DNA of 64,000 nucleotides from Candidatus Latescibacterota bacterium. GTDB taxonomy: Bacteria; Latescibacterota; UBA2968; GCA-2709665. How positions within the stretch are numbered: the stretch's first letter is position 1; each line of letters starts with the position of its first letter. The notes beneath the pieces were generated by a model that worked only from the letters and a program-made list of their open reading frames with translations, was not told where the DNA came from and did no database searches. Location: the NCBI GenBank assembly GCA_965237675.1, contig OZ250150.1, positions 2,016,001-2,080,000 of the forward strand. Direction: 5' to 3'. This document shows positions 41,709 to 62,595 of the stretch, piece by piece. A program made the translations under genes and the position numbers.

Positions 41709-41788
41709 CGACCACCTTCGTCCCCGTCCGGTTGACAAGTAATCTGAAAACGGCGCATTCATGTCTCATCCTGCCCTTCACGGTTTAC

Positions 41789-42036: not shown

Positions 42037-42297
42037 GCAATGGCTGGGTTCTCTGTCTCGAGTTCTGCCTAACAACGAATAAAAAACTCCTGACGAACCG
42101 GTATTGCCCCGGGGCGGGAGCGAGAGCCACTCGAGTTCGGGGAAGAAGGCTTCCGGGCGCCGGCGCCAATGCTGCTTCCGCCCGCAGATGCAGGTCGTGA
42201 GTATGGTGTTCACGCCGCAATTCATGCGTGACCCGCCGGCGCGGACGGACGTTCACCAGGTACCGGATGCGAGCGTAAGAGGGCGTTTTTGCAATGG

Positions 42298-44415: not shown

Positions 44416-44613
44416 ACTTTGCACTTTCTCTATTGGCTTATCGTATTCGCGGGTGAATCGATGCCGGCGCCCAACGCTGGTTTGAACCGCATGGGTCCGA
44501 ACGCCACCGGACAAAACGCATGCGTACGTAACAAGGGCGCCGCCAAACTCGTACGTCTTCTTGACGCTGCCATGGCCTACGCATCTAACACCGCCCCGAC
44601 CCCTTCCGCCTAT

Positions 44614-45846: not shown

Positions 45847-46006
45847 GCGCATCTCCATTTTTGCTGTCTGGCGCCGCCGCGTGCGTGTTCCTGGCGACGA
45901 GCCGGGCATAGTTTTACCCACTCGATCCCGGAAACCGGGGTCTCCGCGATTACACATGTGTCCACTGATTGGTGACAATATGGTTAGGTTGAAGAATTCG
46001 CCTGTG

Positions 46007-46035
46007 AAGATAGGGTGAAAGCATCGCTTTGACAA
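46007..46035 (-). promoter_or_regulatory. Putative sigma-70 promoter for the LRR gene
   Basis: TTGTCA-N17-TATCTT. Confidence 0.5.
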
Positions 46036-46037
46036 TT

Positions 46038-46066
46038 CAAAACCGAAACGGCCCGGGCCGTTCGGC
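46038..46066 (-). terminator. Intrinsic terminator at the end of the minus-strand array
   Basis: CCGAACGGCC-CG-GGCCGTTTCGG followed by TTTT on minus strand. Confidence 0.55.
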
Positions 46067-46167
46067 TTCGGACCGACAGGAGAGGAGGGGAAGAGGTCTG
46101 GTGGGTTGGTAACGATTGGGGTGCGCGGATGCGGCGGTCCTTCAGGGGTTCCCGGCCAGTTGGTTTC

Positions 46168-46611
46168 TTAATCCGACTGATGGACGAAAATAAGTCCAGT
46201 AACGAAGAAACCTAATATCGTTCCGACTGCAACGCCCGCCACAAAAACAGGTAATTCACGAACCAATTCACGATATTCGATGCTCTCGATGTCTGAATAG
46301 TGCAACGTTAACTCCCGACTGACAGTACCACGGGCATAAAACACGATAGGGGTTACTGTCAGTGACGTTAGACCGATCTTTTCAATAATACCCTCGATAA
46401 CTTCACCGTTTGTCGGCCCACGGGCACCCTCGCGAATTCTTATCCTTACGCGCATGCCCTCTTTGAGTTTCCCCAGAACCAGCTCTTGCATCGGAGTCTT
46501 TTTGTCCCACCAGGGGACCCCGCTCCCGCGATCCAGGGGTCGCCATGTACTGCATCCGACCGTTTGCAGCGCAATCGCTATGATCAAAACGATATTAATC
46601 GCGCGTATCAT
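46168..46611 (-). CDS. Lipoprotein with Sm-like domain and C-terminal TM helix (paralog 1)
   Basis: Lipobox TVGC; KLKEGMRVRI..G.IEKI....LTV...LHYSDIESIEY; GVAVGTILG helix; GAGGAGG RBS. Confidence 0.75.
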   Translation of the reverse strand: MIRAINIVLIIAIALQTVGCSTWRPLDRGSGVPWWDKKTPMQELVLGKLKEGMRVRIRIREGARGPTNGEVIEGIIEKIGLTSLTVTPIVFYARGTVSRELTLHYSDIESIEYRELVRELPVFVAGVAVGTILGFFVTGLIFVHQSD

Positions 46612-46776
46612 TCTGTAGCCTCCTCACACTAAGACAGCGTGACGGCATTGTTCTCCGCCACAGGTGCGGTTAGCCTTCGCGACGAAGGGGAAACCCCCGA
46701 CGGAGATCCGTGAGGTGGTCGCGATTGGCGTTCCGCCGACGGGGCGGCACTGCCGGTATTCCGGTTAGTTGTGTTG

Positions 46777-47223
46777 TTAGTCCAACTGGATCCCAGATAG
46801 TCCATAAAGAAAGAGGAAGAAACCCAATACCGTTCCGACTGCAACGCCCGCCACAAAAACAGTTAATCCACGATTCGATTCGCGATATTCGATACTCTCG
46901 ATGTCTGGATAGTTCAACGTTAGCCTCCGACTGACATTATCGGGGAAAAAATATGTCGAAGCGGTTAATGTCAGCGTCGTTTTCCCGATCTTTTCAACTA
47001 TACATTCGAGAACTTGGCCTTTGATCGGAGCAGGGGTACCCTCGAGAATCCTTATCCTTACGCGCATACCTTCTTTGAGATTCCCCAGAACCAGCTCTTG
47101 CATGGAAGACTGTCTGTCATCCTCGGAGACCTCGTTCACGCGAGCCAGGGGTCGCCATGTACTGCATCCGACCGTTTGCAACGCAATCGCTACGATCAAG
47201 ACGATATTGATGGCGCGTATCAT
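46777..47223 (-). CDS. Lipoprotein with Sm-like domain and C-terminal TM helix (paralog 2)
   Basis: Close paralog of 46168..46611; GAGGAGG RBS. Confidence 0.75.
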   Translation of the reverse strand: MIRAINIVLIVAIALQTVGCSTWRPLARVNEVSEDDRQSSMQELVLGNLKEGMRVRIRILEGTPAPIKGQVLECIVEKIGKTTLTLTASTYFFPDNVSRRLTLNYPDIESIEYRESNRGLTVFVAGVAVGTVLGFFLFLYGLSGIQLD

Positions 47224-47331
47224 TCTTTCGCCTCCTCGATTCGTGGGGATGCGACGATTTTATTGATCATGGAATCGGCCATCTGTGTGTGTTGCCCGTC
47301 GGACATCTCGGCATAAAAGCCGGCCTTTCGT

Positions 47332-48300
47332 TCAGAGATACAGCGCGACGCTGAAGACATGGATCCTTTGATCTCTCACAGACCCGCCAAAGCCCCTGTT
47401 GGCGTAATCCACGGCGATTCCACTGCCGCCTGCTGTGGTAAAATCGAATCCGAAACCCAACGCGATGGGAGTCCGGGATTTTTGTCCTGCTCGCAGCGAA
47501 ATGGCAAGTGAATACCCCGGAGCCAATGAAGTAATATGGGTATACTCCACACCCGTGTGCAGTGCGGATTGACCGTGGGGATAGAAGGGTCTGGTCAGGT
47601 CAACGGCGATGTCGAGGCGATACGGGAAGGGCTCGAAACCCATCGTCGATATCAAATCGATGAGCACCCCCGCCCGGACCTGCTTCGGAACGGCAATGCG
47701 CTCTGGCTCGCCCATTGCTCCGGTGCTCAGGTTTCGTGCGCCCAGCGCGATCATCGCATTCCGGGACTCCGTGGCGAAATACGCGCCGAGATCGAGGGCA
47801 AAAGCGTTCCAGGTCCCGTCCCCATACCCTTCGCGGATCAACTTGACAGCGGTACCCAGCGCAAATCGGTCGTTCATCTCCGCTCCCCAGGCGCCGGTAA
47901 CGGCGTAGTTTTTAACGTCCAGGGTCGTGCTGCTTCGGTTATCGTAAATGGTAGTGCGTCCGGCGTCGAAGTTCTGCAACGAAAGTCCGAACGTTCCTGC
48001 CTTCGATACCCTCCCCGCAATGCATGCTACGTGTTTTTTGGTACGACCATACCAATCCACATACGTATAAGTCGCGTCTATCCTCTCCACGAAGGCGAGC
48101 CCCGCCGGATTATACACCATGGTCGAGGCGCTTCCCACCGACGCGACGCCGGTTGCGCCAAGCGCTTCGTCACGGGCGCCGTTGGGCAACAGGAGAAAGG
48201 TGAACCCAACTCTGCGATCGGGTAGTCCCTGGGCGAATCCCTTGTCTGCCATCAGTCCGGCAGATAGCACACATAGTCCCAACGCGATGAACTGTCTCAT
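47332..48300 (-). CDS. PorV/PorQ-like outer membrane beta-barrel
   Basis: Signal peptide, GFTFLLLPNGARDEALG, YNPAGLA, amphipathic strands; GGAGG RBS before ATG 48300. Confidence 0.8.
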   Translation of the reverse strand: MRQFIALGLCVLSAGLMADKGFAQGLPDRRVGFTFLLLPNGARDEALGATGVASVGSASTMVYNPAGLAFVERIDATYTYVDWYGRTKKHVACIAGRVSKAGTFGLSLQNFDAGRTTIYDNRSSTTLDVKNYAVTGAWGAEMNDRFALGTAVKLIREGYGDGTWNAFALDLGAYFATESRNAMIALGARNLSTGAMGEPERIAVPKQVRAGVLIDLISTMGFEPFPYRLDIAVDLTRPFYPHGQSALHTGVEYTHITSLAPGYSLAISLRAGQKSRTPIALGFGFDFTTAGGSGIAVDYANRGFGGSVRDQRIHVFSVALYL

Positions 48301-48397
48301 GATCTGCCAGCCTCCAGAATGGATTGCCGTACAAGAAACCTGGAATGCCATACGGCGTGGAAAAGAGGTTCTCCCGTTGCCACCGAGCCACTTCTGA

Positions 48398-49435
48398 TCA
48401 CATCTCGATTGAGACGCTTAGCAACTGCACGCGATCGTCCTTGATCTCCTCATTAATGATCGCCCCAATATAGGAGTCAACCGCGACGCCCAGACCCCTT
48501 CTGACGTAATCCACGGCAATCCGCCGGCCGCTCGCCGACCTGAATTCCAGCCCGCCGCCCCATCCAAAGGGATTCGGGGATGCGTACCCTCCTCGAATGG
48601 AAATACCGAGTGAATATCCGCCTGCTCGTCGCATCAAATACGTATATTCGACACCCACGCGCAGCGTGGTGTCACCTGACGTTCGGATAGGCTTGTAGAG
48701 GTCGGCGGCCAGGTCCAGGTAGTGCGGAAAGGGTTCCAGACCCAGCGTGGAGATCAGATCGATGAGTACCCCGGCGCGGATACGCTTCGGTACGACGTAT
48801 TCCTCCGGCTCGCCCAGAAAGCCACCAGTCAGGTTCCGCGCGCCCACGGCGATGATTGTATTGCGGGACTTCGACGCGTAGTACGCGCCCAGATCGAAGG
48901 CAAAGACATTTTCATTCCTGACCGTAAACGCCTCATGGATGAGCTTGAGGGTGGATCCGATCGCAAATCGATCGGCAATCCTCCAGCCGCAGGCGCCGGA
49001 AACGGCATACTGGTTTACATCTTCAGTGCGTAATCCTCGATCGTAATTCTGGACTGAAAGACCGAGCGACCATCTTTCGGCTGCATTCGCGGCAATCCCG
49101 ACGACATAGTTCCTTTCATTATATTCCAGGTCCGCGTATCCCTGCTCGGCCGAGATCCAAACGTTGTCAGCTTTCCGGTTCGTGTTCGCGAATGTTAAGC
49201 CCGCATCCAATCCCACCACGAAGGCGAGGCCCGCCGGATTGTACATAATGGCCATAGCACTCCCGATGGTACTCACGCCGGTTGCGCCTAACGCTTCGTC
49301 ACGGGCGCTGAAGGGTTGCCGCAGAAAGTGAAAACCCGTGTATTGGGCGGGCGTCTCCTGAGCGTATCCTCGTTGTGCCATTGGACAGGCGCAGAGTGCG
49401 CAGAATATAGTCAGAATAATGCGTCTCATCGTCAT
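48398..49435 (-). CDS. PorV/PorQ-like outer membrane beta-barrel (paralog)
   Basis: GFHFLRQPFSARDEALG, YNPAGLA, AFDLGAYY. Confidence 0.8.
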   Translation of the reverse strand: MTMRRIILTIFCALCACPMAQRGYAQETPAQYTGFHFLRQPFSARDEALGATGVSTIGSAMAIMYNPAGLAFVVGLDAGLTFANTNRKADNVWISAEQGYADLEYNERNYVVGIAANAAERWSLGLSVQNYDRGLRTEDVNQYAVSGACGWRIADRFAIGSTLKLIHEAFTVRNENVFAFDLGAYYASKSRNTIIAVGARNLTGGFLGEPEEYVVPKRIRAGVLIDLISTLGLEPFPHYLDLAADLYKPIRTSGDTTLRVGVEYTYLMRRAGGYSLGISIRGGYASPNPFGWGGGLEFRSASGRRIAVDYVRRGLGVAVDSYIGAIINEEIKDDRVQLLSVSIEM

Positions 49436-49628
49436 TCACCCTTCGTGATTGGTTGCCGCACCGAACCTGGAGACTATCGAACCGCATCGAAACTGAACGT
49501 CACCCTAGGGCGCTGTGGGCGACGCGAAATTTCTACGGAGTTACCGTGTACGACCCGTTGAGACCACCGGAGGCCGGGAACGACGCTGAATGCCGCTTCC
49601 CGACGGTGCCCGGGTCCAATGTTGGCTT

Positions 49629-50888
49629 CTACCTGCCGCCGAGTACGGTGCCGACGTTCAAAAGGAGCTCGATCTGATTTGCCTGTTCGTACTCATCCCC
49701 GAGCCATCGCACGTATTGCACCTCGTATCTGAGCACGATGCCGCTGTGGAGAACATGCCGGGTTCCCAGGCCAACCCCGGCGCCGAATCGAGAGCCAAAA
49801 TAGTCGCCGTCAATAGTCGTGGCGAAAATCCGGCCATACGGCGAACTCGAAGCCGATCCACGGGCGAGAAAACTGAATCCACCCTGTGCGACCCTCGCAG
49901 TGCTGGCGTCCCCTTCGCCAAGTGAGACATGGGAAACGGCTATTCCAAAATCGAAAGCCAGACGATCCATAAGAAATGAGGTCATATAAATCGATGGCGA
50001 CAGCCGTACCAGACCTCCCCCGGCGCTGGCGATCTTCAGGGCATCACCGGATTGGCCCTTCAGGACAGAATACGAGAGTAGATTCGCGCCAATTTCGCCC
50101 CTGGGCCTGTTCCGAGTTTCGAATCCTGCAGTAACCCTGGGTTTGGGCCAGGCTTCAACGGCGTCGCGTTTTTCAGCAACAACGATCACGTCGATCTCCT
50201 CGAACGCAATCTGCAGGCTTTTCCGTCTTGCAAGCCCGCGCCGCCTGGCGGGAGGCGCGTATTCGATTGTGACGCCAACGGAGTCCATGGCAACAATCTC
50301 TCCTGTTACCGCGCCTTCCTTCCCTTCCGTCGTGTAGACCACGTGAGCATACCAGCCCGTCGCGATTTGCGAAGGGTCGAGGTCGCCCCGGTACATTACG
50401 GTCACGTAGTCGGCAGCCTGCCGTGCCCGTCGCCATTTCTCAAGGGTCCGCCTGTCCGGTGCGACGGCGAGTGTCTCAATAACCGCATAAGCGATTTCCC
50501 GTCTTTCCCAGGGTCCGGATTTCACGACTATGCCATCCGTGTCTTTACCGACAATTTCCCCGTTGACGGTTCCCCGGACGCCTTCCGCCGCGTAGACGAC
50601 GTGCGCGAACCACCCCTTGACAATCTTCAAGGTGTCCAATTCCGCACGCGTCATTACAAGAACGCCCATCTCGCGGGACCACTGGTCGGATAGTTGCTCC
50701 CCACCGCTCTCGTCCCCCGTCTGCTCTACTTCTGTACTGTCTTCGGCGGCGATTGAGGCGAGTGTAGGCCCGGTTGGTGCGCTTCCTACGGGATCGACAC
50801 CCGCATCGCGTTGTGCCGCAAACGAATGGCCAGGCCAGAACATGATTACAAGCGTGATCGCGATCAGAACTGTAGGGTAACGTATCAT
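49629..50888 (-). CDS. Exported protein: two ~85-aa Sm-like repeats plus small C-terminal beta-barrel
   Basis: Signal peptide (SFA), repeats with GWFAHVVY / GWYAHVVY, C-terminal alternating strands (PYGR..FGAGVGLG..LRYEVQY). Confidence 0.72.
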   Translation of the reverse strand: MIRYPTVLIAITLVIMFWPGHSFAAQRDAGVDPVGSAPTGPTLASIAAEDSTEVEQTGDESGGEQLSDQWSREMGVLVMTRAELDTLKIVKGWFAHVVYAAEGVRGTVNGEIVGKDTDGIVVKSGPWERREIAYAVIETLAVAPDRRTLEKWRRARQAADYVTVMYRGDLDPSQIATGWYAHVVYTTEGKEGAVTGEIVAMDSVGVTIEYAPPARRRGLARRKSLQIAFEEIDVIVVAEKRDAVEAWPKPRVTAGFETRNRPRGEIGANLLSYSVLKGQSGDALKIASAGGGLVRLSPSIYMTSFLMDRLAFDFGIAVSHVSLGEGDASTARVAQGGFSFLARGSASSSPYGRIFATTIDGDYFGSRFGAGVGLGTRHVLHSGIVLRYEVQYVRWLGDEYEQANQIELLLNVGTVLGGR

Positions 50889-50967
50889 AAATGCCTCCCG
50901 GGTTAAGGATTTTTCGTTTACCTTCTCGCATTAGCGAGCGACACGTAATTGGTTGGTAGCATGATGC

Positions 50968-50996
50968 AGCTGTCAGCGATCAGCTCTCAGCCGTCA
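50968..50996. repeat. Heptamer tandem repeat (CAGCNNT)n at the intron 5' junction
   Basis: CAGCTGT CAGCGAT CAGCTCT CAGCCGT CA; similar units near 9467 and 61170-61198. Confidence 0.55.
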
Positions 50997-51545
50997 GTGC
51001 GCCGTGCAAAGGCGCGGATCTTCAGTGGGTGAGAGTCCCACCCGACAAGGGTTGCTTCAGTCGGTAGCAACCGGAGCAGGGACGTAGGTAACGAAATCTC
51101 TGACGCCTCCGGTGTAAAGGGTCGCAAGGCGACCCCGCGAGTATGCAGGCCGTAACGAGCAGTGAACGCTGAGCAGGCCTCGGAAAAAGCTAATGCGGGA
51201 GCCGGGAGATTGGTATGAGCCGGAGACCTCCGGAGAAGGTTCGGAAGCTACAGAGGACGTTACATGCCAAAGCGAAGGAATCGCCCGACTACCGATTCTA
51301 CGCGGTTTATGACAAAGTGTATCGGGAGGACGTCCTGCACTGGGCCTACCGCTGTTGCAAGGCCAACGGCGGCGCGGCAGGTGTGGATGGAGAGACGTTC
51401 GAGGATAACGAGTCATATGGACGAGAACGGTGGTTAGGCGAACTGTCGGAAGCCGTGAGAAGCAAATCGTATCGAGCAGCCCCGATCCGCCGGGTCTACA
51501 TCCCGAAGGGGGACGGCAGGCAGCGTCCGCTGGGCATCCCGACGA
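50997..51545 (+). mobile_element. Group II intron remnant (5' part only)
   Basis: GTGCG 5' boundary, domain I-like hairpins (GTGGGTGAGAGTCCCAC, GGGTCGCAAGGCGACCC), then RT N-terminus; no YADD, domain V or VI. Confidence 0.82.
51215..51545 (+). pseudogene. Truncated group II intron reverse transcriptase/maturase
   Basis: KLQRTL..KAK....RFY..YDKV, GAAGVDG, RRVYIPKGDGRQRPLGIPT, then similarity ends. Confidence 0.88.
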
Positions 51546-51645
51546 CGTGCCCGTTATATTCGGTGAGCGAATCGGCCTGCACCGGCTTGCCGGACCAGGG
51601 GCAGGTCTCATTGATGCAATCGTCAATGTCAAGAGCGCGTTTCAT
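51538..51645 (-). pseudogene. Fragment of a small YHS/TRASH-like protein
   Basis: AGGAG RBS, CINETCPWSGKPV....EYNGHVVG, cut before the expected FC...C. Confidence 0.5.
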
Positions 51646-51975
51646 CCTTAGTTCTCCTGGCGCGGCCTCGCAATGCTTGCCCGCGACAAAAAAGCGGCAA
51701 TGATCGAGCGAGCCCGTTTGATGGTTCAATCACTCCCCCCTTGAGGAGGAGTCGCAAAAGCCGGGCCCGTCCACTGAGACTTGCCCTCTTGTGCTGCTTG
51801 CACTGAGCTTGCCGAAGTGAATTGTCGAAGCAAGCCTGTCGAAGGGTGTCGAAATGTCGAAGGGCCGGCCTGTTTGCGTGCAACGCACAGGCAGGCGACG
51901 GCTGATGCGGTGGGGGGATCGCATATGGGCTGCGCCGCAAGACCGGCACTTCAGGAGTTTCAAGCAGTTGTTTTT

Positions 51976-52419
51976 CTAGTCCGAACCCCGACGAAATACA
52001 ATACCAGTGACCAGGATACCCAATATCACTCCGGTCGAAAGTCCCCCGGCGAAAACAAGCGATTTACGTGCCACGCCGCGATATTCGATGCTGACGATGT
52101 CGGCAAAACGCAATGTGAACTCCCGCCCAGCGTTGCTACGGGCAAAGGAGGTGTACGGGGTTACCGTCAGCGACATGTGCCCGATTTTTTCAATAACACA
52201 CTCGACAACGCGGCCTGTGATCGGCGTAGGGGCACCCGCCCGTATTCTAATCCTTATGCGCATGCCCTCCTTGAGTTTACCGAGAACTTGCTCTCGCATC
52301 CAAGTCTGATTGTCTTCCTCGAATACTTCGTTTGTGCGAACCAGAGGTTGCCATGTACTGCATCCGACGGTTTGTAGCGGAATTACTGCGATTAAAGCGA
52401 TACTGACTGAGCGTCTCAT
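51976..52419 (-). CDS. Lipoprotein with Sm-like domain and C-terminal TM helix (paralog 3)
   Basis: LQTVGCSTW, LGKLKEGMRIRIRI, FADIVSIEYR, C-terminal hydrophobic helix. Confidence 0.75.
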   Translation of the reverse strand: MRRSVSIALIAVIPLQTVGCSTWQPLVRTNEVFEEDNQTWMREQVLGKLKEGMRIRIRIRAGAPTPITGRVVECVIEKIGHMSLTVTPYTSFARSNAGREFTLRFADIVSIEYRGVARKSLVFAGGLSTGVILGILVTGIVFRRGSD

Positions 52420-52507
52420 TCAGTTATCTCCTCGTATTTTAGGCAGCGTGAATGCATCGTTCCATACTCAATGGGCAGTTCGCCTTCGCGGCGATGAGGA
52501 AAGCCCG

Positions 52508-53598
52508 CTAGTGTCCCGTCCCAGAAATAGCTTTACAAAATCGTTCGACTTTTTGGATGATCGATTGTGCGGTGGCGGTCCAGAGGAAAGGCTTCGACGT
52601 GTCGTTGTAGTTGTCGGTGAAGGTTTGTATTCTGTCGATAAGTTCATTGACAGATCTGAAGGAGCCGCGCCTGATGGCCTTCTGAGTGATGATATTGAAC
52701 CAGATCTCGACCTGGTTGAGCCAGGATGCGTAGGTCGGTGTAAAGTGAACGTGGTATCTGGGTCTTTGTGAAAGCCATCGTTTCACTTTGGTGTGTTTGT
52801 GCGTACAATAGTTGTCGACGATCAAATGCACATCGAGATCATCAGGGACGTTTTGGTCGATGTGGTTGAGAAACTGCAAAAACTCCTGGTGGCGGTGCCT
52901 GCGCTTGCATTGCGTCAACACCTCGCCCGAGGCAATGTCCAGGGCAGCGAACAACGTCGTGGTGCCGTGGCGGCGGTAATCGTGCGTCACGCCCTCCACA
53001 TATCCCAGCCCCATCGGCAAAAGCGGCTGGGTACGCTCCAACGCCTGCGTCTGGCTTTTCTCGTCGACACAAAGCACTATCGCAGAATCCGGTGGGTCCA
53101 GATACAGACCGACGATGTCGTGGACTTTTTCTGTGAAGAAGGGATCGTTAGATAGCTTGAAGTGCTTCTGACGGTGTGGCGCAATCCCCAATGTGGACCA
53201 GATACGTTGCACCTCGGATTTGGATATCTTCGTTTCGGCAGCGATGGAACGACACGTCCAATGGGTGCTGCCGTCTTCGGGTTTTTGGTCAGCGTCTTGC
53301 GGATCAGTGCGGTGATGTCTTCGGCCTCAACCGTGCGTGGTCTGCCCGAACGGCGTTCATCATACAGACCCATTAATCCTTGCTGGAGAAAGCGGTTACG
53401 CCAGGTGATGACGCTCTGCTGGCTCAGCCCGACTTTTTGGGCAATCACCCGGTTACTGAGACCTTCGACGCTCATCAAGACGATCTTGGCACGTCGCACG
53501 AGACCATGCGACAACGTACGAGAGGTTGAAAGTGAGTTGAGTTCCTCACGGACCTGGCCAGACAACACAATGGGCTTCCGAGGACGACCGCGTCCCAT
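52508..53598 (-). CDS. IS630 transposase in two frames (needs a -1 shift)
   Basis: HTH part RSGRPR; DDE part CVDEK, YRRHGT, IVDNY, SWLNQVE; frames join at C-AAA-AAC (A5 run at 53282-53286). Confidence 0.88.
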
Positions 53599-53690
53599 GG
53601 TTCTCTCCTTTCCCGATGGGTGTAAGAAGCGTGTAGAGAGAACATAGGACAGGCTCAATAAATAGTCAAGTTACTTTAGGGACAAAACAC
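52511..53690 (-). mobile_element. IS630-family insertion sequence
   Basis: Imperfect IRs GTGTCCCGTCCCAGAAATAGCTTTAC / GTGTTTTGTCCCTAAAGTAACTTGAC, TA on both flanks. Confidence 0.92.
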
Positions 53691-54499
53691 TAGAGCATAG
53701 AAGGATTCAGATCCCAGCGCGACATTCTGAGGATGCCGCTTTGGGTCCACCTCTGCCACCTTTCCAGGGCCTGTAAGGTTTTAGCGAAAGCGAGTGTGTC
53801 AATTTCCGAAGCTGTAATTTTCCAAGTTTCCGGTCGTTCGGCCCCGGACTTGATCACAATGCCATCCGCATCTATCTCCAGGACCTTTCCGGATGCCGTC
53901 TTTTTGAGACCCCGCCACGTGTAGACCGCGTGCGCATACCATCCCGTCGTGAGCTTCGACAGGTCGAGATCTTTACGGGACATGACGGTGATCTTCTCCG
54001 CGGCCAGTCTTGCATTCAGCCAGGATTCGAAGGTGAGCCGATCTTCTGCGACGGCCAGAATGTTAATGTCGCCAAATGCTGTTTTTCGCGTTTCAAATGG
54101 CGCGGCCTCGGATTCAATCAGGATACCATCCGGATCTATTCTCGCAATCACGCCCCATGCCACTCCTTCGATCCCTTCCGTGGTGTAGACAACATGCGCA
54201 AAGGATCCCGTTTTAAGCGTTGAGGGGTCCACTTCTCCACGCGACATCACTTTGATGCCGGTCTCCCGGGTCCTTTGGCCGGGCGCTCTCAAAATCTGCT
54301 CCTTCTTCTCGCCGCCGCTATCGTTTTCCGTCTCCAGCTTGTCCTTCACATCTGCACCGTCCGACACAGCTTCGGAAGCACTAAATGGCGCTCTACCTGC
54401 CATCTGAGTTGCGGAGAGTCGCTGCGCGGCGTGCGAACGCGACGATGCTGCAATGGTCGTCAGGATGGCTGCGAGCAATACCAGGGCGGATGACTTCAT
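53690..54499 (-). pseudogene. Exported Sm-like repeat protein truncated at the IS630 junction
   Basis: Signal peptide (SHA), two full repeats, third repeat stops after 14 aa at the IS boundary. Confidence 0.75.
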
Positions 54500-54751
54500 G
54501 GATTCTCCTCGTTGAAATACTCTACCTGCTATTTTTGTTGAAGGAGGTGAAACGGGAGAGGGAAGAAGGTAGAGGCAAAGGCGGATTCCTTGATGAGCCA
54601 GACGTGTGACGTCCCCATCATGCCTGTTGTTTGTGGTTTTTCTAACTTCTCCCCTCTTCCGTCTCTCGTCTCCCCTCATTCAGCGTCTTGCCACTTACTG
54701 TGACGATCTACCTTCATAGTAATCGCGACATTCTGGTGCCCTGGCAGACGC

Positions 54752-55975
54752 CTAAAACTCGAACGACAATGCGGCTCGCAGACCCTTGTCTCTTGTCGGC
54801 GCGATGCTCAAGTTGAGGCGGTTAATTGGAGCGTCGACCCATCGGTCGGTCTGAATCAGAGAGCCGATTGCAGTAAAGACAATAACCGGCACAAAGAACC
54901 CGGTAAACAACCGATTGACTTCATACCCGGTATCGGGGTCGTTCCATTGCGGTTCTTCCGTATTTGCTGTAACTACCAGCGCAGTCAACATTCCTGCGGC
55001 CAAACCGATCAGCAGCCCTTTGCCCGTGTTTCGGCGACGCCCATTATAAAACTCCAAATCAGTTATTGAAGAAGCGGGTACTGGAAAGACATCCCGCCTG
55101 GATGGACCAACCCCAATCAGGAATGTATCCTGTTTCACGTCGACAAGCCTGCCACGTGTCCATCTCTTTTCGGACAGTTTATCAATAGTCAAGGGCGCCT
55201 TGAAATGTAGTTCGGAATCCTCCATCAGGCGTTTGATGGCGAGTTTCACGTTTCTCCATCCCGTAATGTCGCCACGTCTTTCAGCGCCGACGATGATGTG
55301 GATGTCGTTAAACGGGATTTTTCTCAATGTGCCCGAACTCCCCCAGGAACCGTAACTGGAATTGACAACAAAGTGTCGATTTCCAATTTCCACAATTTCC
55401 GCGAGTTCGGCTCGTTTGTCGTAATTGAAATCGTATACCACGTACGCGTACCATCCGTTCTTGAGTCTAGTTACGTCGAACGTGCTACGCGACATGACGA
55501 CGAGACGGCCTTCCATCCGCCTTTGCCACCTCTCCAGCGCCTGTGGATCCCTGGCGACAACGAGCGTGTCAATTTCGGCGTACCTTATATGTATTTTTCT
55601 CCGGATTATGCCGGCGGATTTTATCCAGATGCCCTCCGGATATTTCCCGCTGATCTGGCCGGTAAAGGTGCTCTTCGCGCCTGACGAAGTGTAGATTACA
55701 TGCGCATACAATCGCTTCTCTAACTTCGATTCAATCATATTCGCCCCCGACATCACCACGACGTCCATCTGATAGAATAACCTTATTGCCCGTTCAGCGA
55801 CAGCCAGGGCACGGTCCCTCTCGGACAGGGGTTTCCGCCCGCTAAGCCTCGTGGCTTTGGTCTGTCCGATCCGCTCGGGCTTTCCGCCGGGGAGTTCCTC
55901 CGCCAGCACGGAAACGTACGGCGCAAGGATCTCGATCAACAGGCATGCGATCAATATCAAAGAGGTTGACTTCAT
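54752..55975 (-). CDS. Exported protein: two Sm-like repeats, third related domain, Gly-rich helical hairpin, terminal beta-hairpin
   Basis: Signal peptide; LYAHVIY / GWYAYVVY repeats; GLLIGLAAG; ends LSIAPTRDKGLRAALSFEF. Confidence 0.75.
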   Translation of the reverse strand: MKSTSLILIACLLIEILAPYVSVLAEELPGGKPERIGQTKATRLSGRKPLSERDRALAVAERAIRLFYQMDVVVMSGANMIESKLEKRLYAHVIYTSSGAKSTFTGQISGKYPEGIWIKSAGIIRRKIHIRYAEIDTLVVARDPQALERWQRRMEGRLVVMSRSTFDVTRLKNGWYAYVVYDFNYDKRAELAEIVEIGNRHFVVNSSYGSWGSSGTLRKIPFNDIHIIVGAERRGDITGWRNVKLAIKRLMEDSELHFKAPLTIDKLSEKRWTRGRLVDVKQDTFLIGVGPSRRDVFPVPASSITDLEFYNGRRRNTGKGLLIGLAAGMLTALVVTANTEEPQWNDPDTGYEVNRLFTGFFVPVIVFTAIGSLIQTDRWVDAPINRLNLSIAPTRDKGLRAALSFEF

Positions 55976-56097
55976 TGATTCCTCAAATCTCCGAGTACTC
56001 GTGGAACTCTACTCGGGCCGTGATCCTAGCTCATTGAGACAAAGACCGGCTATCCTCCCACTCTGTTTACCTGGCAGAATGCGATCGTGGATCTTGA

Positions 56098-57306
56098 TTA
56101 AAATCGATACGTTGTGACAGCGGTTACGCTACCGTTTCTCCTGGGCGCCAGGCCGACCGAAAAACCAGGCGCGTCAGGCGGCCTTCGCGAACGCTCGAAC
56201 ATCATTGTAGCTCCAACCAGAGGGCCTAAGAGAAGTGATGGCCAAAGGACTTCGTCTAACATCGTCATTACGACGCCTGCTCCGCATCCTGTCGCGGAAC
56301 CGGCCAATGAGTAGATGTGTCGATCATACGGATCTGCGAGGCTTGCCATGGATACACCAAGTAAATACCCCAGGGACAATCCCAGAGCGGTTTCGCCCTC
56401 GATGCAGATCTCACCTCTCATCCCGGGACGATTGCAGTTGTTTTCTGTGAAACCCATTCCGATACTGCCGATCAGAATTGCACCCCCTGCTGAGCCAAGG
56501 ATCCCTCCAAGTGCTCCGTAGATCAACTTGCCTGCAATCCGCATCGGCGCTCCGACCGTTATGGGTTGGCTTGCATTTCTCCACTGACGGATCATCTTTC
56601 TTTTTACCGTGACAGCGATGGTCTCGATGTCACCATACTCGATTTCCAGCTCTTTTCCCCATCTGGATGAATTACTGCTTCGGTCCCATGACGTGATCAG
56701 GATAACCCGATGGTCCACGTGGGTAATTTCTCCGGTGGCAGCGTCTTTGTTTCCACCCGACGTATAGGTTACGTCCGCATACCATCCCTTCCTGATCTTC
56801 GAGAGTTCAAGCGCTCCACGCGCCATCACCAGGAAACGGCCATTCGATCGTGCTTTCCACTTCTCCATCGTTTGACGGTTTCTGGCGACTACGACCGTGT
56901 CGATGTCGCTATACTCTATTTGCCACCTTTCAATGAATCCGGCTGTAGATTTAAGTGTCATTCCTTCCTGGCTTCTTTCTGCAATGGTGCCTGTCGATGT
57001 TGCCCTGACTCCTTCCGAGGTGTAGACCACATGCGTGTAACGTCCTCTCTTCAGCTTCTTCAGGTCAATACTTCCGCGTAACATTACTGCGACATCCTTT
57101 TCGAAGAATTGCTTAACTGACCGATCAACGATCTCCGCGGCGCTATCAGTCTCCATCGTCTGTTTGTGCGTCTGTTCAACAGCCGGATCCAGTCCTGCCG
57201 TGCGTTGCGTCCTCATGTAATGCAGTCGACCGGTGGCGTGGGCAAGACAGGGTGCCAGGATCTCAAGCATCAGGCCTGCATTTAATATCACGGCAGTTAA
57301 TTTCAT
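56098..57306 (-). CDS. Exported protein: two Sm-like repeats, glycine-zipper helices, terminal beta-hairpin
   Basis: Signal peptide (AHA); GRYTHVVY / GWYADVTY repeats; GALGGILGSAGG; ends SVGLAPRRNGSVTAVTTYRF. Confidence 0.75.
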   Translation of the reverse strand: MKLTAVILNAGLMLEILAPCLAHATGRLHYMRTQRTAGLDPAVEQTHKQTMETDSAAEIVDRSVKQFFEKDVAVMLRGSIDLKKLKRGRYTHVVYTSEGVRATSTGTIAERSQEGMTLKSTAGFIERWQIEYSDIDTVVVARNRQTMEKWKARSNGRFLVMARGALELSKIRKGWYADVTYTSGGNKDAATGEITHVDHRVILITSWDRSSNSSRWGKELEIEYGDIETIAVTVKRKMIRQWRNASQPITVGAPMRIAGKLIYGALGGILGSAGGAILIGSIGMGFTENNCNRPGMRGEICIEGETALGLSLGYLLGVSMASLADPYDRHIYSLAGSATGCGAGVVMTMLDEVLWPSLLLGPLVGATMMFERSRRPPDAPGFSVGLAPRRNGSVTAVTTYRF

Positions 57307-57516
57307 CGACACACCTCGCTGAAAAACTCTTCGTACTGTCCTTATGCAAGAAGGTAGGAAGAAAGAGGGTGGAAGGAAGAGGAAAACGCGGTTTTATCGA
57401 GGCGCACCGCGCGTGAGGTCTCTTGCGCGCCTTTCATTTCAGGTTTTTTCTCACCTCTTACGTCTCGCCGTATTTCGGGTTTTTCTCACGTCGCACCTCT
57501 TCCCTCTCACTGCTTT

Positions 57517-58666
57517 TTAGAACTTGAACGACATCGCGGCTCGCAGACCTCTGTCTCTTGTCGGCGCGATGCTCAGATTGATCCGTGAAGGGGAGACTTC
57601 GACCCATTTTTCGCTAATGGTTCTAACACCGACCAGGGTTCCACACAGTGTCGCGAGAGGCACAGCCAGTACCCGCGTAGAAGAATCGATCGTTGCCCTC
57701 CCGTTCTCCAACTTTCTCTCTTCTATCGTTGTCAGATACATCATGAGGATATATCAGAAATGCCGCGCCAAGTCCGGAAAGAAACCCGATCCCTATACCC
57801 TTGATCGTGTTTCGATGAAGACCCATGCTTACTTCCAGATCTTTGACTAAAGCGCGGGGGATCCGTTCGGCGCCGCGTTCGGACAGGATCTCAAGCGTGT
57901 CCTGGACGGAACCAATAAACCTCCCGGTCACCCATTTCGGCGATATCGAGGGCGCCTTTAACCGGACCCTGGGTCCCTGGAGCTCACGCATCGCCCTCTG
58001 CGTTCTCTGCCAGCGATCCATGTCTCTGCGATTGCGGGCGACGATGATGCGCTCGATATCGTCCGACCGGATTGTCCAACGGACTCCGGATTTCTTCCCG
58101 GGTTTGATTACGATATGATTCGCGTCTCTACGGATAATCACACCCGTAGTGGAGCGCCTGACACCTGAGGATCTATAATCAACGTGTACGTGCCATCCGA
58201 ATCTCAGCTTCCCGAGGTTGAGGTCTTCGTCGGACAACACCGTCATCGCCGACTTCTGAACCTGAAGCATCGCCCGTCTTGACATTCGCCACAATTCGAT
58301 GCCTCCCGGGTTGTCGGAAAACGCGAGGACCACAATATCGCGACGCGCGATCTCCCATCCTTTCCCTTCACCCGCCGCGATGACGACTCGATTCGAATTG
58401 CAGCTAACGATTCGGCCCATCGCCGCGTTTTCAACCTCGTTCGAATTGAACACCACGTACGCATACAATCCGGGCGAAAGCTTTTTCACATCAAGTTCCT
58501 TACCGGGCATGACCGTAACCGCCTTCGCATGGAGCCTCTGAATGGCCGCTTCAATTGCCGGATCCGCCTGCTGCGCGCCTCGAAGTTGTGTGGCTGCGTG
58601 CGCAAGGGCGGGTGCAATCGCGTTTGACATCAGGGTCGCGGTCAAGATGAGTGCGACAGATTTCAT
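57517..58666 (-). pseudogene. Exported Sm-like repeat protein with frameshift near 57680
   Basis: Paralog of 54752..55975; its tail NLSIAPTRDRGLRAAMSFKF lies in another frame (ORF 57517..57744). Confidence 0.72.
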
Positions 58667-58728
58667 GATTACCCTCCACAGGCTCTTACATGGCGATTTC
58701 TGCAGCGTTCGAGACGTTCTCCGGACGC

Positions 58729-59763
58729 TTATCCCTGGTGCAGTGGCGCCGCCGTTTCCATCTGCTCGAGACCGTCTTTCTCCTTCGGCGCGCCGAACTG
58801 TATAATGCTCGATCCGAGCAGGAGCAGCAGCAGGCCCAACAGCATCCAGAAGATCTTCCGGATTCGACGGATAATTCCCACGGCCAATCCGGTACCCGGT
58901 TCCAGTCCCATCAAATGAAAGAGGAACACGTGCCCGCCTTCGAAGACCCCCATGCCGTAGGGAACGAAACCGAATATCACGTTGATCACCATCATCAGTG
59001 AATGGAACAGGTAGACCGAAACGAACGGCAGTGGTTCACCCAGCACTTGAAGAATCACGTAAATCTCCAGTGTGCCGAGGCTCCATGTCAGCAGATGGAG
59101 TCCCAACAGGCCCGCCAGCCGCAAAGGGTTCAGACGGTAAAACGCGGCCAGGCTCCGATCGATCTCCGCCGCCCGGTCGCGGTACCGCTCCACAAACGTG
59201 ATCCGCATCCGCAGCAACAGATTCAAGAGCCCGGTGAAGGGATTGCGGCGCTGTCTGACGACGGTCAGAACGCCGCCGCCGACGGCCAGTGCCAGCATGG
59301 CAAAAAGCGTCCACCGGATCTCCTCCGAAAACGCGTACCGATTAAGACCCGCGATGACGCCGCCCAGGACGAAAATGACGCCGCTGATCATCTCGCCCGT
59401 TTTATTGAGGACAAGCGAGGACACGCCGGCGATCACGCCCATTCTCTGCCGCAGCATCATCACTTTGGCGACCTCTTTGCCGATCTGCGAAGCCGGCATC
59501 ACGTTTCCCAACGCTTCGCCAACCAGTTTGACCCACAGCAACGGTCTCAATCGGGGCCTCTTCTTCCCACCGTCGAAGCATTTCCGCCATGCGCAGACGT
59601 TAATGATATAGGCCGCCAGGGTAATTCCGATCGTCGGAATATATCCCCAGCCCATCATCACCACGTGCTGCCACACCTCCGGATCGCCAAGCTGGTGCAG
59701 GAGCACGCCGAGGCATGCAAGGCCCAACAGCCAGAGCAGTATATACGTTTCCTGTCTCATCAT
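58729..59763 (-). CDS. Lysylphosphatidylglycerol synthase TM / flippase-like (UPF0104) membrane protein
   Basis: About 8 TM helices, GEALGNVMPASQIGKE, FVPYGMGVFEG, GIIRR. Confidence 0.82.
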   Translation of the reverse strand: MMRQETYILLWLLGLACLGVLLHQLGDPEVWQHVVMMGWGYIPTIGITLAAYIINVCAWRKCFDGGKKRPRLRPLLWVKLVGEALGNVMPASQIGKEVAKVMMLRQRMGVIAGVSSLVLNKTGEMISGVIFVLGGVIAGLNRYAFSEEIRWTLFAMLALAVGGGVLTVVRQRRNPFTGLLNLLLRMRITFVERYRDRAAEIDRSLAAFYRLNPLRLAGLLGLHLLTWSLGTLEIYVILQVLGEPLPFVSVYLFHSLMMVINVIFGFVPYGMGVFEGGHVFLFHLMGLEPGTGLAVGIIRRIRKIFWMLLGLLLLLLGSSIIQFGAPKEKDGLEQMETAAPLHQG

Positions 59764-59785
59764 ATTCTCCTCGAATAGCGACCAG

Positions 59786-60433
59786 TCAGATCACGACCCT
59801 CTTGGCCGCGGTGATTACGGGAATTCCCCGGATCGCGCACAGGGCGACGGTCAGGTAGGTCGCTGCCAGAGCGACCCTCTCCACACCCGGTTCGACCGCA
59901 CCCGCCAGGTTCGGTGAATGTTGCACGGCGTTCAGGATGAACAACGCGACGAAAGCGATCACCTTCGCAACGCCGTACGTCGCCCGGCTCGCCCGGGAGG
60001 CAACAAGGGCGTACCCCATGCGCGACCGCATCATCGATGTCTCACCGAACGCGGTCTCACCTCGGGCCAGCGCGCAACTCCGAATCGCGTCCGTCACGAA
60101 TCCCCTGCTGAGCACAACCAGGGGCACCCAGAGGGGGATCACATGTAACCACGCGAACACCACCCACCACACGTTCTCCGCTATCCGGTCTCCGACGATA
60201 TCGAGCAATCCGCCGACTTTGCTCTCGCATCCCAGGCGGCGTGCGGCGTACCCATCCAGCCAATCCATCAGCAGCGCGGCAAACGCGAGGGGCACCGCAA
60301 TCCAGGCCAGCACGGTATTTCCGGTGACCGCGAAGGCCGCCGCCAGAAACAGGCAGACGACCCGGGTGGCGGTGATCAGGTTGGCAACGTGGCGCTGAAG
60401 GGTGGCTGCAACCATCAATGTCTGTGTTGACAT
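59786..60433 (-). CDS. CDP-alcohol phosphatidyltransferase family protein
   Basis: ANLITATR; DWLDGYAARRLGCESKVGGLLDIVGD signature; GGAGG RBS before ATG 60433. Confidence 0.92.
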   Translation of the reverse strand: MSTQTLMVAATLQRHVANLITATRVVCLFLAAAFAVTGNTVLAWIAVPLAFAALLMDWLDGYAARRLGCESKVGGLLDIVGDRIAENVWWVVFAWLHVIPLWVPLVVLSRGFVTDAIRSCALARGETAFGETSMMRSRMGYALVASRASRATYGVAKVIAFVALFILNAVQHSPNLAGAVEPGVERVALAATYLTVALCAIRGIPVITAAKRVVI

Positions 60434-60462
60434 AACTTCCTCCTTTCTTGCACCACACATTT

Positions 60463-60478
60463 CGCAAACCCCGTGCCA
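60463..60478 (-). promoter_or_regulatory. Sigma-54 (-24/-12) promoter
   Basis: TGGCACGGGGTTTGCG matches TGGCAC-N5-TTGC exactly, 30 bp upstream of ATG 60433. Confidence 0.85.
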
Positions 60479-60542
60479 CAGCCGTTCGGGCTCGAAATCA
60501 GGCCGATTAGATGATTTTCGGCACCTGAAAGCGCCCGACCTG

Positions 60543-60580
60543 TGCAATGTTTTATTTGCACCTGCAATCCCGGTCTTGCA
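60543..60580. promoter_or_regulatory. Twin palindromic enhancer sites (UAS)
   Basis: TGCAA-N8-TTGCA at 60543-60560 and 60563-60580, centres 20 bp apart. Confidence 0.72.
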
Positions 60581-60686
60581 GGCAACGCGCCGATAGGCGG
60601 CACAAAAAAACCCGAAGACAAGAAATTTGTCTTCGGGCACCCTTTGGGGAGGCGACGATCCAACTGCATTGTTTATTATTATAATT

Positions 60687-61140
60687 TTACGTCCTTTTTC
60701 TTGTACGCCCAAGAAAAAGGACCAAAAAGAACGGCGCCGCTCGGCGCGGAGCCGGTTTTTCCGCGAATCGCCTCAGAGGCATAAACGGGAATTGGGTACC
60801 CTGCGAACCTGTCAGGTGTACCTGTACCACCGTGCTGGACGGAACAGTACGGAAAAACCCCCCTTTCCACCACCGGTCGCACGATCGGTAGATCGGGAAG
60901 CTGCGCGAAAGGCGGGCGGTTCGCGAACCGCCCCTACGAAAACCTGATGTCCGTGATGTTGATATCACGGTGTTTCTCGCCAACCTCGTATTCGTAGGGG
61001 CGACTCTTAGAGTCGCCCACGTCGTGGCGTGCATATCGCTAATTGGCTTCGCCAAGCCATGTCGATGTCCGGTGTTGGCTTTTTGCTGTCTACTGACCGC
61101 TGTTCTCGCCGGAGGCAGGGAATTTGGGGAGATGTGGATT
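60687..61140 (-). repeat. Structured ~450-nt repeated element, copy B, containing GTAG REPs
   Basis: Inverted homolog of 9415-9864; REPs at about 60914-60937 and 60994-61018. Confidence 0.8.
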
Positions 61141-61197: not shown

Positions 61198-62595
61198 CTA
61201 TCTGTAAATCCCGGGATCGATCCCGAGTTCCCTCACTTTCTGCTGCAGCGCCTGTCGCTTCATGCCAATGGCGGGCGCCGTCCGGCTCATATTGCCGTTG
61301 TGGCGTTCCAGAGCCGACCGGAGAAACGCTGCTTCGAAATCCTGCACGACCTCCTGTTTGGCGTCCTGAAAACAATCGCCATCCCTCCAGCCGGGCGTCG
61401 CGGCCCCGGCGTATTCCGCCCCGCTCGTACGGATTTCCTCCGGAAACAGATCTCTGCTCAGGGTGGATCCGTCCGCCAGAATGATCGCGCGCTCGAGCGC
61501 GTGCATCAGTTCCCGAATGTTTCCCGGCCAGGCGTATGCCACCAGCAGCTTCATCGCGTCAGCCGGCAGTTCCGTTACGGCCTTACCATGCCGGCGATTG
61601 AATCGATCCAGGAAATATTGAACAAGCAGCGGAATATCCTCACGTCGGTCGCGCAACGGCGGAAGGAGAATATCCACCACTCTCAGTCGATAATAGAGGT
61701 CCTCGCGGAACTGCCCTCGCGCAATCTCACTCGGAAGGTCCCGATTGGTCGCGCTGATCGTCCGCACGTCTACAGCCACCGTCTCCGTACCGCCCAGGCG
61801 CTCGAACCGTTGTTCCTGGAGCACCCGCAGCAGTTTTGCCTGGGTCTCCACGTGCATATCGCCGATCTCATCCAGAAAGAGCGTTCCGCCATCCGCAAGC
61901 TCAAACTTGCCCTGCCGCCTCGCCGCGGCTCCCGTAAAAGCGCCTTTCTCATGCCCGAACAGCTCGCTTTCGATCAGCTCCGTGGGGAGCGCCGCGGCAT
62001 TCACGGCGATAAACGGCCGCTCCTTCCTCCCGCTTTGTTCGTGAATCGCACGGGCCACGAGTTCCTTGCCGGTTCCGCTTTCCCCGTGAACCAGCACGGC
62101 AGCATCCGTTCCGGCCACCTTGCCGATCATGTCATACACCCCGTCCATCGCCCGGCTCCGGCCGATCATCAGTCCGAACCCCGACTGTCGCCGAATCTCG
62201 TTGCGCAGCGTTTCGTTCTCCCTGCGCAGTCTCACGGTCTCCAACGCGTTTTGTACGAGACAGCGAAGTTCGTCCACGTCGTAGGGCTTGCTCACGTAGT
62301 CGTACGCGCCCGCCTTCATTGCCTCCACGGCAATCCGCTCCGATCCGTAGGCTGTCATGACAATGACCGGCGGCGCGCTTCCCTGATCGCCAAGGCGCTT
62401 GACCAGCGTCAACCCATCCATTTTCGGCATCTGGATGTCACAGATCAACAGATCGGGACGGCTGCGTGCAATTTCCTCGAGTGCCGCCGCCCCATCTCCC
62501 GCTTCGACGATCTCGAAGGACAGTGCCGCCAGGGCCCGCTTCAGGCCGTGCCGAGCGGCAGGGTCGTCGTCTACAACCAGAATCTTATGCCGCAT
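61198..62595 (-). CDS. NtrC-family sigma-54 response regulator
   Basis: ILVVDDD, DIQMP, GESGTGKE, GAFTGA, WPGNIREL, Fis-like HTH. Confidence 0.94.
   Translation of the reverse strand: MRHKILVVDDDPAARHGLKRALAALSFEIVEAGDGAAALEEIARSRPDLLICDIQMPKMDGLTLVKRLGDQGSAPPVIVMTAYGSERIAVEAMKAGAYDYVSKPYDVDELRCLVQNALETVRLRRENETLRNEIRRQSGFGLMIGRSRAMDGVYDMIGKVAGTDAAVLVHGESGTGKELVARAIHEQSGRKERPFIAVNAAALPTELIESELFGHEKGAFTGAAARRQGKFELADGGTLFLDEIGDMHVETQAKLLRVLQEQRFERLGGTETVAVDVRTISATNRDLPSEIARGQFREDLYYRLRVVDILLPPLRDRREDIPLLVQYFLDRFNRRHGKAVTELPADAMKLLVAYAWPGNIRELMHALERAIILADGSTLSRDLFPEEIRTSGAEYAGAATPGWRDGDCFQDAKQEVVQDFEAAFLRSALERHNGNMSRTAPAIGMKRQALQQKVRELGIDPGIYR

Follow-up and report, generated by a model that had tools for sequence, protein, structure and literature searches.

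Control of envelope functions by sigma-54 is a known theme, as PMC3162934 sets out, and the work of Haft et al. (2006; PMC1569441) on PrsK and PrsR describes a sigma-54 regulon belonging to PEP-CTERM/exosortase systems. Here we describe a gene cluster of Candidatus Latescibacterota that resembles the PrsK/PrsR regulon in its control and departs from it in what is controlled. The cluster lies in a stretch of 64,000 nucleotides (contig OZ250150.1, positions 2,016,001 to 2,080,000), which was analysed whole and is called the window below, and its genes are all on the minus strand, twelve of them running from 60433 down to 46168. Both regulons combine a histidine kinase that crosses the membrane several times with an activator of the NtrC kind, and in both a conserved upstream activator motif and a -24/-12 promoter stand ahead of genes for secreted envelope proteins. 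Unlike the PrsK/PrsR regulon, the cluster carries unrelated cargo families, and lipid genes come first in the array. No PEP-CTERM motif, exosortase, PrsT or polysaccharide gene was found in the window, and no PEP-CTERM cargo or exosortase was found among the representatives of the flanking open reading frames (ORFs). Cargo and lipid genes are the departures from the closest described kind of system, which is a sigma-54, two-component regulon of envelope proteins; the cluster itself is composed of known superfamilies together with families that have no description.

The cluster is real and conserved. Scanning of genomes yielded 27 loci in 21 assemblies; 25 of the loci are titled Latescibacterota or Latescibacteria and 2 Gemmatimonadota. 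In the window, the promoter (Table 1) is the single exact occurrence of TGGCAC-N5-TTGC, and it stands about 31 nt ahead of a ribosome-binding site (AGGAGG) and of the ATG that begins the first gene at 60433. The twin enhancer palindromes lie 20 bp apart, at -102 and -82 relative to the promoter; sites with at most one mismatch number 7 in the window against 1.78 expected, and the exact ones are the twin sites alone. A 720-nt spacer follows the regulator gene and closes with a strong intrinsic terminator, which lies ahead of the enhancer sites. Each of these elements recurs in the relatives. The exact promoter precedes the transferase gene at all 12 loci possessing that gene, and the twin sites are present within 3 bp of -102 and -82, with no more than one mismatch, in every one of 13 aligned regions (the window and 12 loci), as is a hairpin with a T run that matches the terminator. 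When twin sites and promoter were sought jointly as a cassette, the window and 14 of the 27 loci proved to have it, and the rest of that DNA has none. These 14 loci represent 13 Candidatus Latescibacterota assemblies, and the position of the cassette is conserved base for base. Behind it, the transferase and flippase-like gene pair followed by genes for repeat proteins (REP proteins) is found at 12 of the 14 loci; at L006 the cassette heads pairs of REP and barrel genes with no lipid genes. Of the 12 loci with a transferase gene, 9 have the regulator gene directly upstream, and in 8 the kinase gene is its neighbour. As an overall explanation we favour a lineage-specific envelope regulon of Candidatus Latescibacterota, the outer-membrane platform proposed below included, and would give that reading about an even chance.

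An earlier note on this DNA had listed twelve co-oriented genes, a sigma-54 promoter, twin enhancers, a terminator, a GAF kinase and an NtrC-type regulator, and all of these lie where it had placed them. Its assignment of the genes to families was borne out by family scans, and the synteny on which it had staked its proposal was found among relatives, joining lipid genes, regulators and repeat proteins. Its view that no named system has this gene set is also supported, as no curated family or named system was found to cover the anchor module, the lipoproteins or the repeat proteins. The reading of the region as an envelope locus stands in so far as the cluster is real, conserved and under sigma-54 and two-component control; the accompanying link to type IX secretion and the idea of a single twelve-gene transcript fared worse and are weighed below. 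The note had missed an IS630 element, an antisense group II intron remnant and a frameshift in the first repeat gene. No published description of the cluster was found in term searches of the Creative Commons literature of PubMed Central and of bioRxiv, and a term search of the main text of the 2015 Latescibacteria genome paper returned nothing on dockerins, cohesins or the cluster.

The resemblance to PrsK and PrsR can be put in numbers. Full-length orthologues of the kinase align end to end with the PrsK model TIGR02916 (5-679 of 679) at 127-138 bits against a cut-off of 300, and the regulator scores 408.5 bits against TIGR02915 (PrsR), for which the cut-off is 502.6. The regulatory logic thus appears close to that of PrsK/PrsR, with both proteins falling outside those families as defined. 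At the sister loci that lack the upstream kinase and regulator genes (L009:1714-4577, L015:5324-6793, L018:4460-7323), a Schlafen/AlbA_2-type gene is found in their place, accompanied in two of the three (L009 and L018) by a transposase gene of the IS701 family, which suggests rearrangement upstream of the cassette at these three loci. In the window, the spacer between regulator and promoter contains two inverted GC-rich hairpin elements with a common GGGGCG core (60929-61002); similar elements occur close to the cassette in L006 and L009, and the window shows no enrichment of the 10-mer of the hairpin. Locus L014 contains the cassette twice, the second copy (6452-6567) standing before REP, WD40 and REP genes, and the regulon may therefore own several promoters per genome.

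The two lipid genes stand first in the array. The transferase retains the motif D-x2-DG-x2-AR-x8-G-x3-D-x3-D intact in translation and scores 60.4 bits against the PgsA equivalog TIGR00560 (cut-off 109.1), and it falls under all equivalog cut-offs; its nearest relative in the PDB is PgsA 7drj (E 1.3e-3). The flippase-like protein scores 147.2 bits against HpnL (cut-off 195.65) and has no significant relative in the PDB by sequence. It belongs to a subfamily of 28 members, beyond which identity falls from 45% to 31%, and its PF03706 domain is one to which PMC5898192 assigns a flippase role. The pair is thus like PgsA and the flippase domain of MprF in possessing the CDP-alcohol phosphatidyltransferase motif and the PF03706 domain, and unlike them in that both proteins score under the equivalog cut-offs and that an aminoacyl-transferase domain is absent. 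Mapping with phmmer found 12 loci with the transferase gene, of which two overlap on one contig, so that 11 assemblies are represented; the flippase-like gene comes next in every one, with REP genes no more than two genes farther on. The lipid gene pair forms a small lineage-specific subfamily bound to the cassette. At 7 loci (for example L007:7143-7670) the flippase-like gene is followed by a gene for a barrel-like protein of about 175 residues with an aromatic C-terminal end. With tblastn, no remnants of this small barrel, of a 300-residue sister-locus protein or of a dockerin module were found in the window.

The most numerous products of the cluster are five proteins with signal peptides (REP1 to REP5) that share a beta-rich repeat of about 85 residues. 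Hidden Markov models (HMMs) built from the alignment of the REP family detect exactly two copies in each of them, with domain E-values from 1e-13 to 1e-38, in keeping with the single common repeat that had been noted earlier. Across the family, two to four repeats are combined with one of two anchor types. In the first type, an Sm-like domain (the third domain) is joined to two glycine-rich hydrophobic segments and, at the C-terminus, to an amphipathic hairpin whose last residue is aromatic; the second is a small beta-barrel, as in REP5. REP1 carries a one-base frameshift in a G run near 57650, and its listed ORF stops at 57623. The conserved C-terminus is encoded in a different frame as far as 57518, and its final 64 nt match the 3′ end of REP3 at 88% identity; REP1 could be a pseudogene or reflect a homopolymer error in the assembly.

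How the first anchor type is built can be seen from a column profile drawn from 188 unique modules. The third domain has the alternation expected of beta structure, and the two hydrophobic glycine-rich segments have GxxxG spacing, a variable loop between them and basic residues on their outer flanks. The module ends in two amphipathic strands with alternating hydrophobic residues and a terminal aromatic, and these strands appear to resemble the ends of barrel proteins handled by the barrel assembly machinery (BAM). In many stand-alone relatives, the loop between the segments contains a pair of cysteines. Because of this pair, the loop is probably located in an oxidising compartment, and an inner-membrane hairpin with a cytoplasmic loop is therefore unlikely. 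From the signal peptides, the barrel-type ends, the basic-flanked glycine-rich segments, the cysteine pair and the barrels of the REP5 type, we infer that REP proteins would be placed in the outer membrane, and surface display by the locus is plausible.

The anchor module extends well beyond this cluster. A word-indexed search returned 45 REP relatives, and a profile search of 1.84 billion representatives returned 4388 at E ≤1e-3, 791 at ≤1e-10 and 89 at ≤1e-30. Many of these matches are about 185 residues long and cover only the third domain and anchor, so that the anchor module is a widespread stand-alone family. No Pfam or NCBIfam family was found for it, searches of the PDB by sequence with REP, anchor-module and repeat profiles yielded nothing significant, and the named members that were looked up are all "hypothetical", one of them from a Vicinamibacteria metagenome-assembled genome.

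Comparison of profiles with hhalign relates the domain of the cluster's lipoproteins to the third domain (probability 91%, P 1.1e-6) and the third domain to the repeat (probability 70%, P 3.9e-5). The lipoprotein domain and the repeat are related at P 2e-3 with deeper alignments; with a shallow set of three window sequences and eight locus homologues the comparison was not significant (P about 0.02). These values suggest that lipoprotein domain, third domain and repeat form one domain superfamily. The Sm/SH3-like label comes from relatives and not from the window REPs, because it is the relatives that match RimP_C or LSM: the gathering score of RimP_C (PF17384), which is 26.3, is reached by 3 of 8 scanned relatives (P0023, 42.6 bits; P0026, 36.3 bits; P0024, 28.3 bits), and the anchor-module relative P0198 reaches both gathering scores, with 47.8 bits against LSM (PF01423) and 39.8 bits against RimP_C. 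The name "Sm-like", applied earlier to the repeats, fits the third domain and the lipoprotein domain, and the repeats themselves much less well.

Three lipoprotein paralogues and two barrels of the PorV/PorQ family complete the array. The lipoprotein genes are 80% and 71% identical in DNA over 300 nt, and the family has 87 members that are at least 48% identical, for which the sole name in any source is "hypothetical protein". In the sister loci, PorV-like genes are coupled to REP genes of either anchor type: 13 of 19 PorV-like ORF pieces directly follow a REP ORF, at gaps from -49 to 213 nt save for one small fragment at 373 nt, and many of the pairs are separated by 4-51 nt. For 12 adjacent REP/barrel pairs, the similarity matrices of the two partners correlate (Spearman 0.45), a value reached in 9 of 5000 permutations.

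A second association in the sister loci concerns dockerins. ORFs matching our own dockerin HMM directly precede a REP ORF in 17 of 29 cases. The dockerin-like module, about 57 residues long and C-terminal, was found at ten loci (L004, L005, L007, L009, L010, L011, L013, L015, L017 and L018), and its bearers are large secreted proteins with either He_PIG/PKD/fn3 Ig-like domains or WD40 and leucine-rich repeat (LRR) domains, one of which also has a metallopeptidase-like segment. Three of four scanned Ig-like proteins match dockerin type I (PF00404) at 26.4-30.9 bits, above the cut-off of 22.9. This arrangement is like cohesin-dockerin anchoring in that, at the sister loci, genes for dockerin proteins precede the gene for a tandem-repeat, membrane-anchored protein. 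It is unlike it in that REP proteins show no cohesin match and have repeats of about 85 residues, and in that the window has no dockerin protein; binding between the two is hypothetical. Just downstream of the cluster in the window, an LRR lipoprotein is encoded at 44614-46035.

Table 1. Positions of the genes and sequence elements of the cluster, and of the mobile elements within it, in the window.
Feature	Position	Strand	Details
Sensor histidine kinase (GAF, HisKA, HATPase_c)	62585..64000	-	PrsK-like architecture; N-terminus beyond window edge
NtrC-type sigma-54 activator	61198..62634	-	REC, AAA+ with GAFTGA, HTH_8; PF00158 243 bits
Intrinsic terminator before enhancer sites	60610..60638	-	-20.8 kcal/mol, z -5.3
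Twin enhancer sites	60563-60580 and 60543-60560	-	two perfect TGCAA-N8-TTGCA palindromes
Sigma-54 promoter	60463..60478	-	-24 GG and -12 GC elements; TGGCACGGGGTTTGCG (exact match TGGCACGGGGTTTGC, 60478-60464)
CDP-alcohol phosphatidyltransferase, PgsA-like	59786..60433	-	PF01066 61.1 bits (cut-off 22)
MprF/HpnL-type flippase-like membrane protein	58729..59763	-	PF03706 94.1 bits (cut-off 33.4)
REP1: signal peptide, two repeats, Sm-like domain, anchor	57518..58666	-	frameshifted near 57650
REP2: two repeats, Sm-like domain, glycine-zipper and C-terminal anchor	56098..57312	-	own HMMs
REP3: two repeats, Sm-like domain, glycine-zipper and C-terminal anchor	54752..55975	-	own HMMs
REP4: two repeats only, anchor absent	53690..54679	-	likely start near 54499
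IS630-family element	52510..53690	-	TA target duplication; transposase split into two overlapping ORFs
LIPO1: lipoprotein, Sm-like domain, C-terminal Gly-rich helix	51976..52419	-	lipoprotein paralogue
Truncated group II intron	51023..51703	+	domains 1-4 RNA and N-terminal reverse transcriptase piece
REP5: two repeats and small C-terminal beta-barrel	49629..50888	-	C-terminal region of about 170 residues
PorV/PorQ-family barrel 1	48398..49435	-	NF033709 64.7 bits (below cut-off of 90)
PorV/PorQ-family barrel 2	47332..48351	-	NF033709 98.3 bits (above cut-off of 90)
LIPO2: lipoprotein paralogue	46777..47223	-	Sm-like domain
LIPO3: lipoprotein paralogue	46168..46611	-	Sm-like domain
Terminator-like hairpin and T run after last lipoprotein gene	46030..46075	-	-21.3 kcal/mol, z -2.6

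Taken together, these features are consistent with an inducible outer-membrane platform. The kinase would sense a cue from the envelope, and the activator would occupy the twin sites and open the sigma-54 promoter. Working as a pair, the transferase and the flippase-like protein would then supply a dedicated phospholipid, probably an anionic one of the phosphatidylglycerol (PG) type, at the outer face of the inner membrane. REP scaffolds, barrels and lipoproteins would enter the outer membrane, where each REP would work with a partner PorV-like barrel, and the basic residues that flank the glycine-rich hairpin would suit anionic lipid head groups. Because REP genes of the sister loci directly follow genes for LRR, WD40, metallopeptidase-like and Ig-like dockerin proteins, what the platform most likely holds at the envelope in those loci is dockerin-tagged proteins.

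A bolder version of this proposal, which we hold tentatively and regard as rather unlikely, is that REP proteins with the Sm-like domain, glycine zipper and C-terminal hairpin constitute an unrecognised class of oligomeric outer-membrane anchors, which in Latescibacterota would have grown into a docking system that is inducible and independent of cohesins. Sm-like repeats in tandem would bind the C-terminal dockerin modules of eukaryote-like proteins (LRR, WD40 and Ig-like), a cognate PorV-like barrel would seat each scaffold in a patch of locus-specific phospholipid, and one sigma-54 regulon would switch on the whole.

With an envelope regulon of this kind, the uncultured phylum Candidatus Latescibacterota would gain a delimited unit with a precise promoter, operator sites and a cognate two-component system. 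The anchor would be an outer-membrane module present in thousands of representative proteins, with no relative in Pfam, NCBIfam or among solved structures. The platform is also a candidate answer to how many dockerin-tagged, eukaryote-like repeat proteins could be kept at the envelope where cohesins are lacking. Finally, a dedicated phospholipid synthase and flippase would be coupled to remodelling of outer-membrane proteins, a theme that has emerged recently for glycine-zipper lipoproteins of Escherichia coli.

Several observations weigh against the regulon and its platform as a single working system. None of the five window REPs matches RimP_C at E ≤1, and only 4 of 60 repeat units match it at E ≤0.05. 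The side of the membrane on which the repeats would lie is ambiguous, as the N-terminal extension of a small barrel is normally periplasmic and large dockerin-tagged proteins are normally extracellular. Moreover, no dockerin protein was found in the window itself. All loci were retrieved with a REP bait, which biases the adjacency counts upward, and the correlation between REP and barrel similarities may merely mirror shared descent. The gene content of the sister loci is also uneven: L019 and L026 have lipid genes and REPs with no barrels or lipoproteins, and lipid genes are lacking from L006, where the cassette and pairs of REP and barrel genes are present. Because each of these loci lacks a module, the parts are separable. 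In the window, moreover, the downstream half may escape the sigma-54 promoter, as REP1 is frameshifted and the array is split by the IS630 element and the intron.

The last two points carry the explanation that survives best next to the regulon, namely that the twelve genes are not one unit. On this account the transferase, the flippase-like protein and REP1 to REP4 would form the sigma-54 unit, with REP5, the barrels and the lipoproteins as a separate variable module. The two mobile elements stand between these halves. The IS630 element has imperfect 12-nt terminal inverted repeats and is inserted exactly at the stop codon of REP4. The intron, which is antisense and lies between LIPO1 and REP5, is recognised by its RNA (Rfam RF02003, group-II-D1D4-4, at 51023-51160, 99.7 bits) and by a reverse-transcriptase fragment of about 110 residues at 51215-51703. 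Both are interlopers and not members of the system. A single twelve-gene transcript, as had been proposed, is doubtful in this genome because of them. In addition, L019 and L026 have the same flanks with the distal half missing, and the window has one cassette only. Against this division, the two halves are contiguous and co-oriented in L002 and L023, with no mobile element found between them, the cassette of L006 lies directly ahead of REP and barrel pairs, and no strong minus-strand terminator was found inside the array of the window. We regard this division as rather unlikely. What is observed is a core with variable modules, and, given the separability of the modules and the damage by mobile elements, there is no need for all twelve genes to function together or to share a transcript in this genome. 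Truncation of REP4 by the IS630 element was considered separately and rejected, as the gene has its stop codon whether the element is present or not.

It is also possible, and in our judgement unlikely, that the cluster is a stress-induced stabiliser of the outer membrane resembling SlyB or YfgH, in which glycine-zipper rings would enclose barrels and phospholipid, and the cluster's own anionic lipid would gather in nanodomains. The preprint 10.64898/2025.12.22.696046 describes SlyB as forming 11-mer lipid nanodomains and YfgH as genetically tied to cardiolipin synthase. The cluster is like them in having a glycine-rich, two-segment membrane hairpin on a beta-rich periplasmic domain, with GxxxG spacing and basic flanks, and in its two-component control and link to anionic phospholipid, the array being rich in barrels and headed by a PgsA-like enzyme. 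This resemblance is functional only. Relatives match Gly-zipper_YMGG and Rick_17kDa_Anti (PF05433) weakly, the best match having 26.4 bits against a gathering score of 28.9 and that to Rick_17kDa_Anti 18.7 bits against 24.2, and searches by sequence found no relatives in the PDB. Unlike SlyB and YfgH, REP proteins have the reverse domain order and an extra barrel-type hairpin at the C-terminus, and the majority of members have ordinary signal peptides and not lipoboxes. Nor would a stabiliser explain the pairing with dockerin proteins.

Two further explanations appear quite improbable. The first was raised by the earlier note and would link the cluster to surface display by the type IX secretion system (T9SS), the PorV-like barrels serving as shuttles or anchors that carry repeat proteins or cargo to the surface. 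PorV and PorQ hold PorU and PorZ at the cell surface, and the cluster is comparable in that each barrel gene is coupled to one partner gene for a soluble-domain protein. The barrels belong to the same family, since both match the PorV/PorQ model NF033709, one of them above its cut-off (98.3 against 90 bits); the nearest solved relative is PorV 6h3i_F (E 1.4e-3), and the phylum Candidatus Latescibacterota is a member of the Fibrobacteres, Chlorobi and Bacteroidetes (FCB) group. However, the barrels score 28.9 and 45.3 bits against the PorV equivalog of the T9SS (NF033710, cut-off 250) and 49.2 and 70.5 bits against the PorQ model (cut-off 220), far under both thresholds. No T9SS C-terminal sorting domain was found on the scanned proteins of the cluster or its partners, which end in dockerin-like modules instead, and the C-termini of REP proteins are of the barrel type and not cleavable sorting domains. 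No T9SS gene was found in the window or among 53 representatives of flanking ORFs. From the window and these flanking ORFs, the cluster is probably not part of a T9SS.

The second would see in the cluster a route for lipids or hydrophobic compounds, with FadL-like channels of the PorV family and periplasmic Sm-domain proteins moving the lipid made by the locus or some other substrate. The PorV family is FadL-like, the genes for a lipid synthase and a flippase come first in the array, and the coupling of REP to barrel genes is tight, with gaps of 4-51 nt in many cases. On the other hand, REP proteins showed no sign of a lipid-binding fold, L006 retains REP/barrel pairs with no lipid genes, and numerous paralogous REPs associated with dockerins suit a transporter poorly, so that this explanation, too, has little probability. 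A role in defence was dropped, since none of 13 proteins matched the PADLOC anti-phage models.

Outside the cluster, the window contains other elements of regulation and mobility. Downstream, at 39819-44514, a second signalling pair is encoded, consisting of a REC-PAS-PAS hybrid kinase and a REC-PAS sigma-54 activator; the region includes a -24/-12-like site with one mismatch at 41789-41804, and the same pair also follows the shorter cluster of L019. Farther away, two co-oriented copies of one insertion sequence (DDE_Tnp_1_4; 17196-18806 and 32121-33731), 100% identical over 300 nt and 14,925 bp apart, flank a stretch of lower GC content (0.485-0.52 around 28-36 kb). The genes of this stretch include aminoglycoside N-acetyltransferase-like and phosphotransferase-like genes and S9 peptidases, and creatininase fragments are duplicated within it (26395-26678 and 27761-28044, 86% identical). 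The layout resembles that of a composite transposon.

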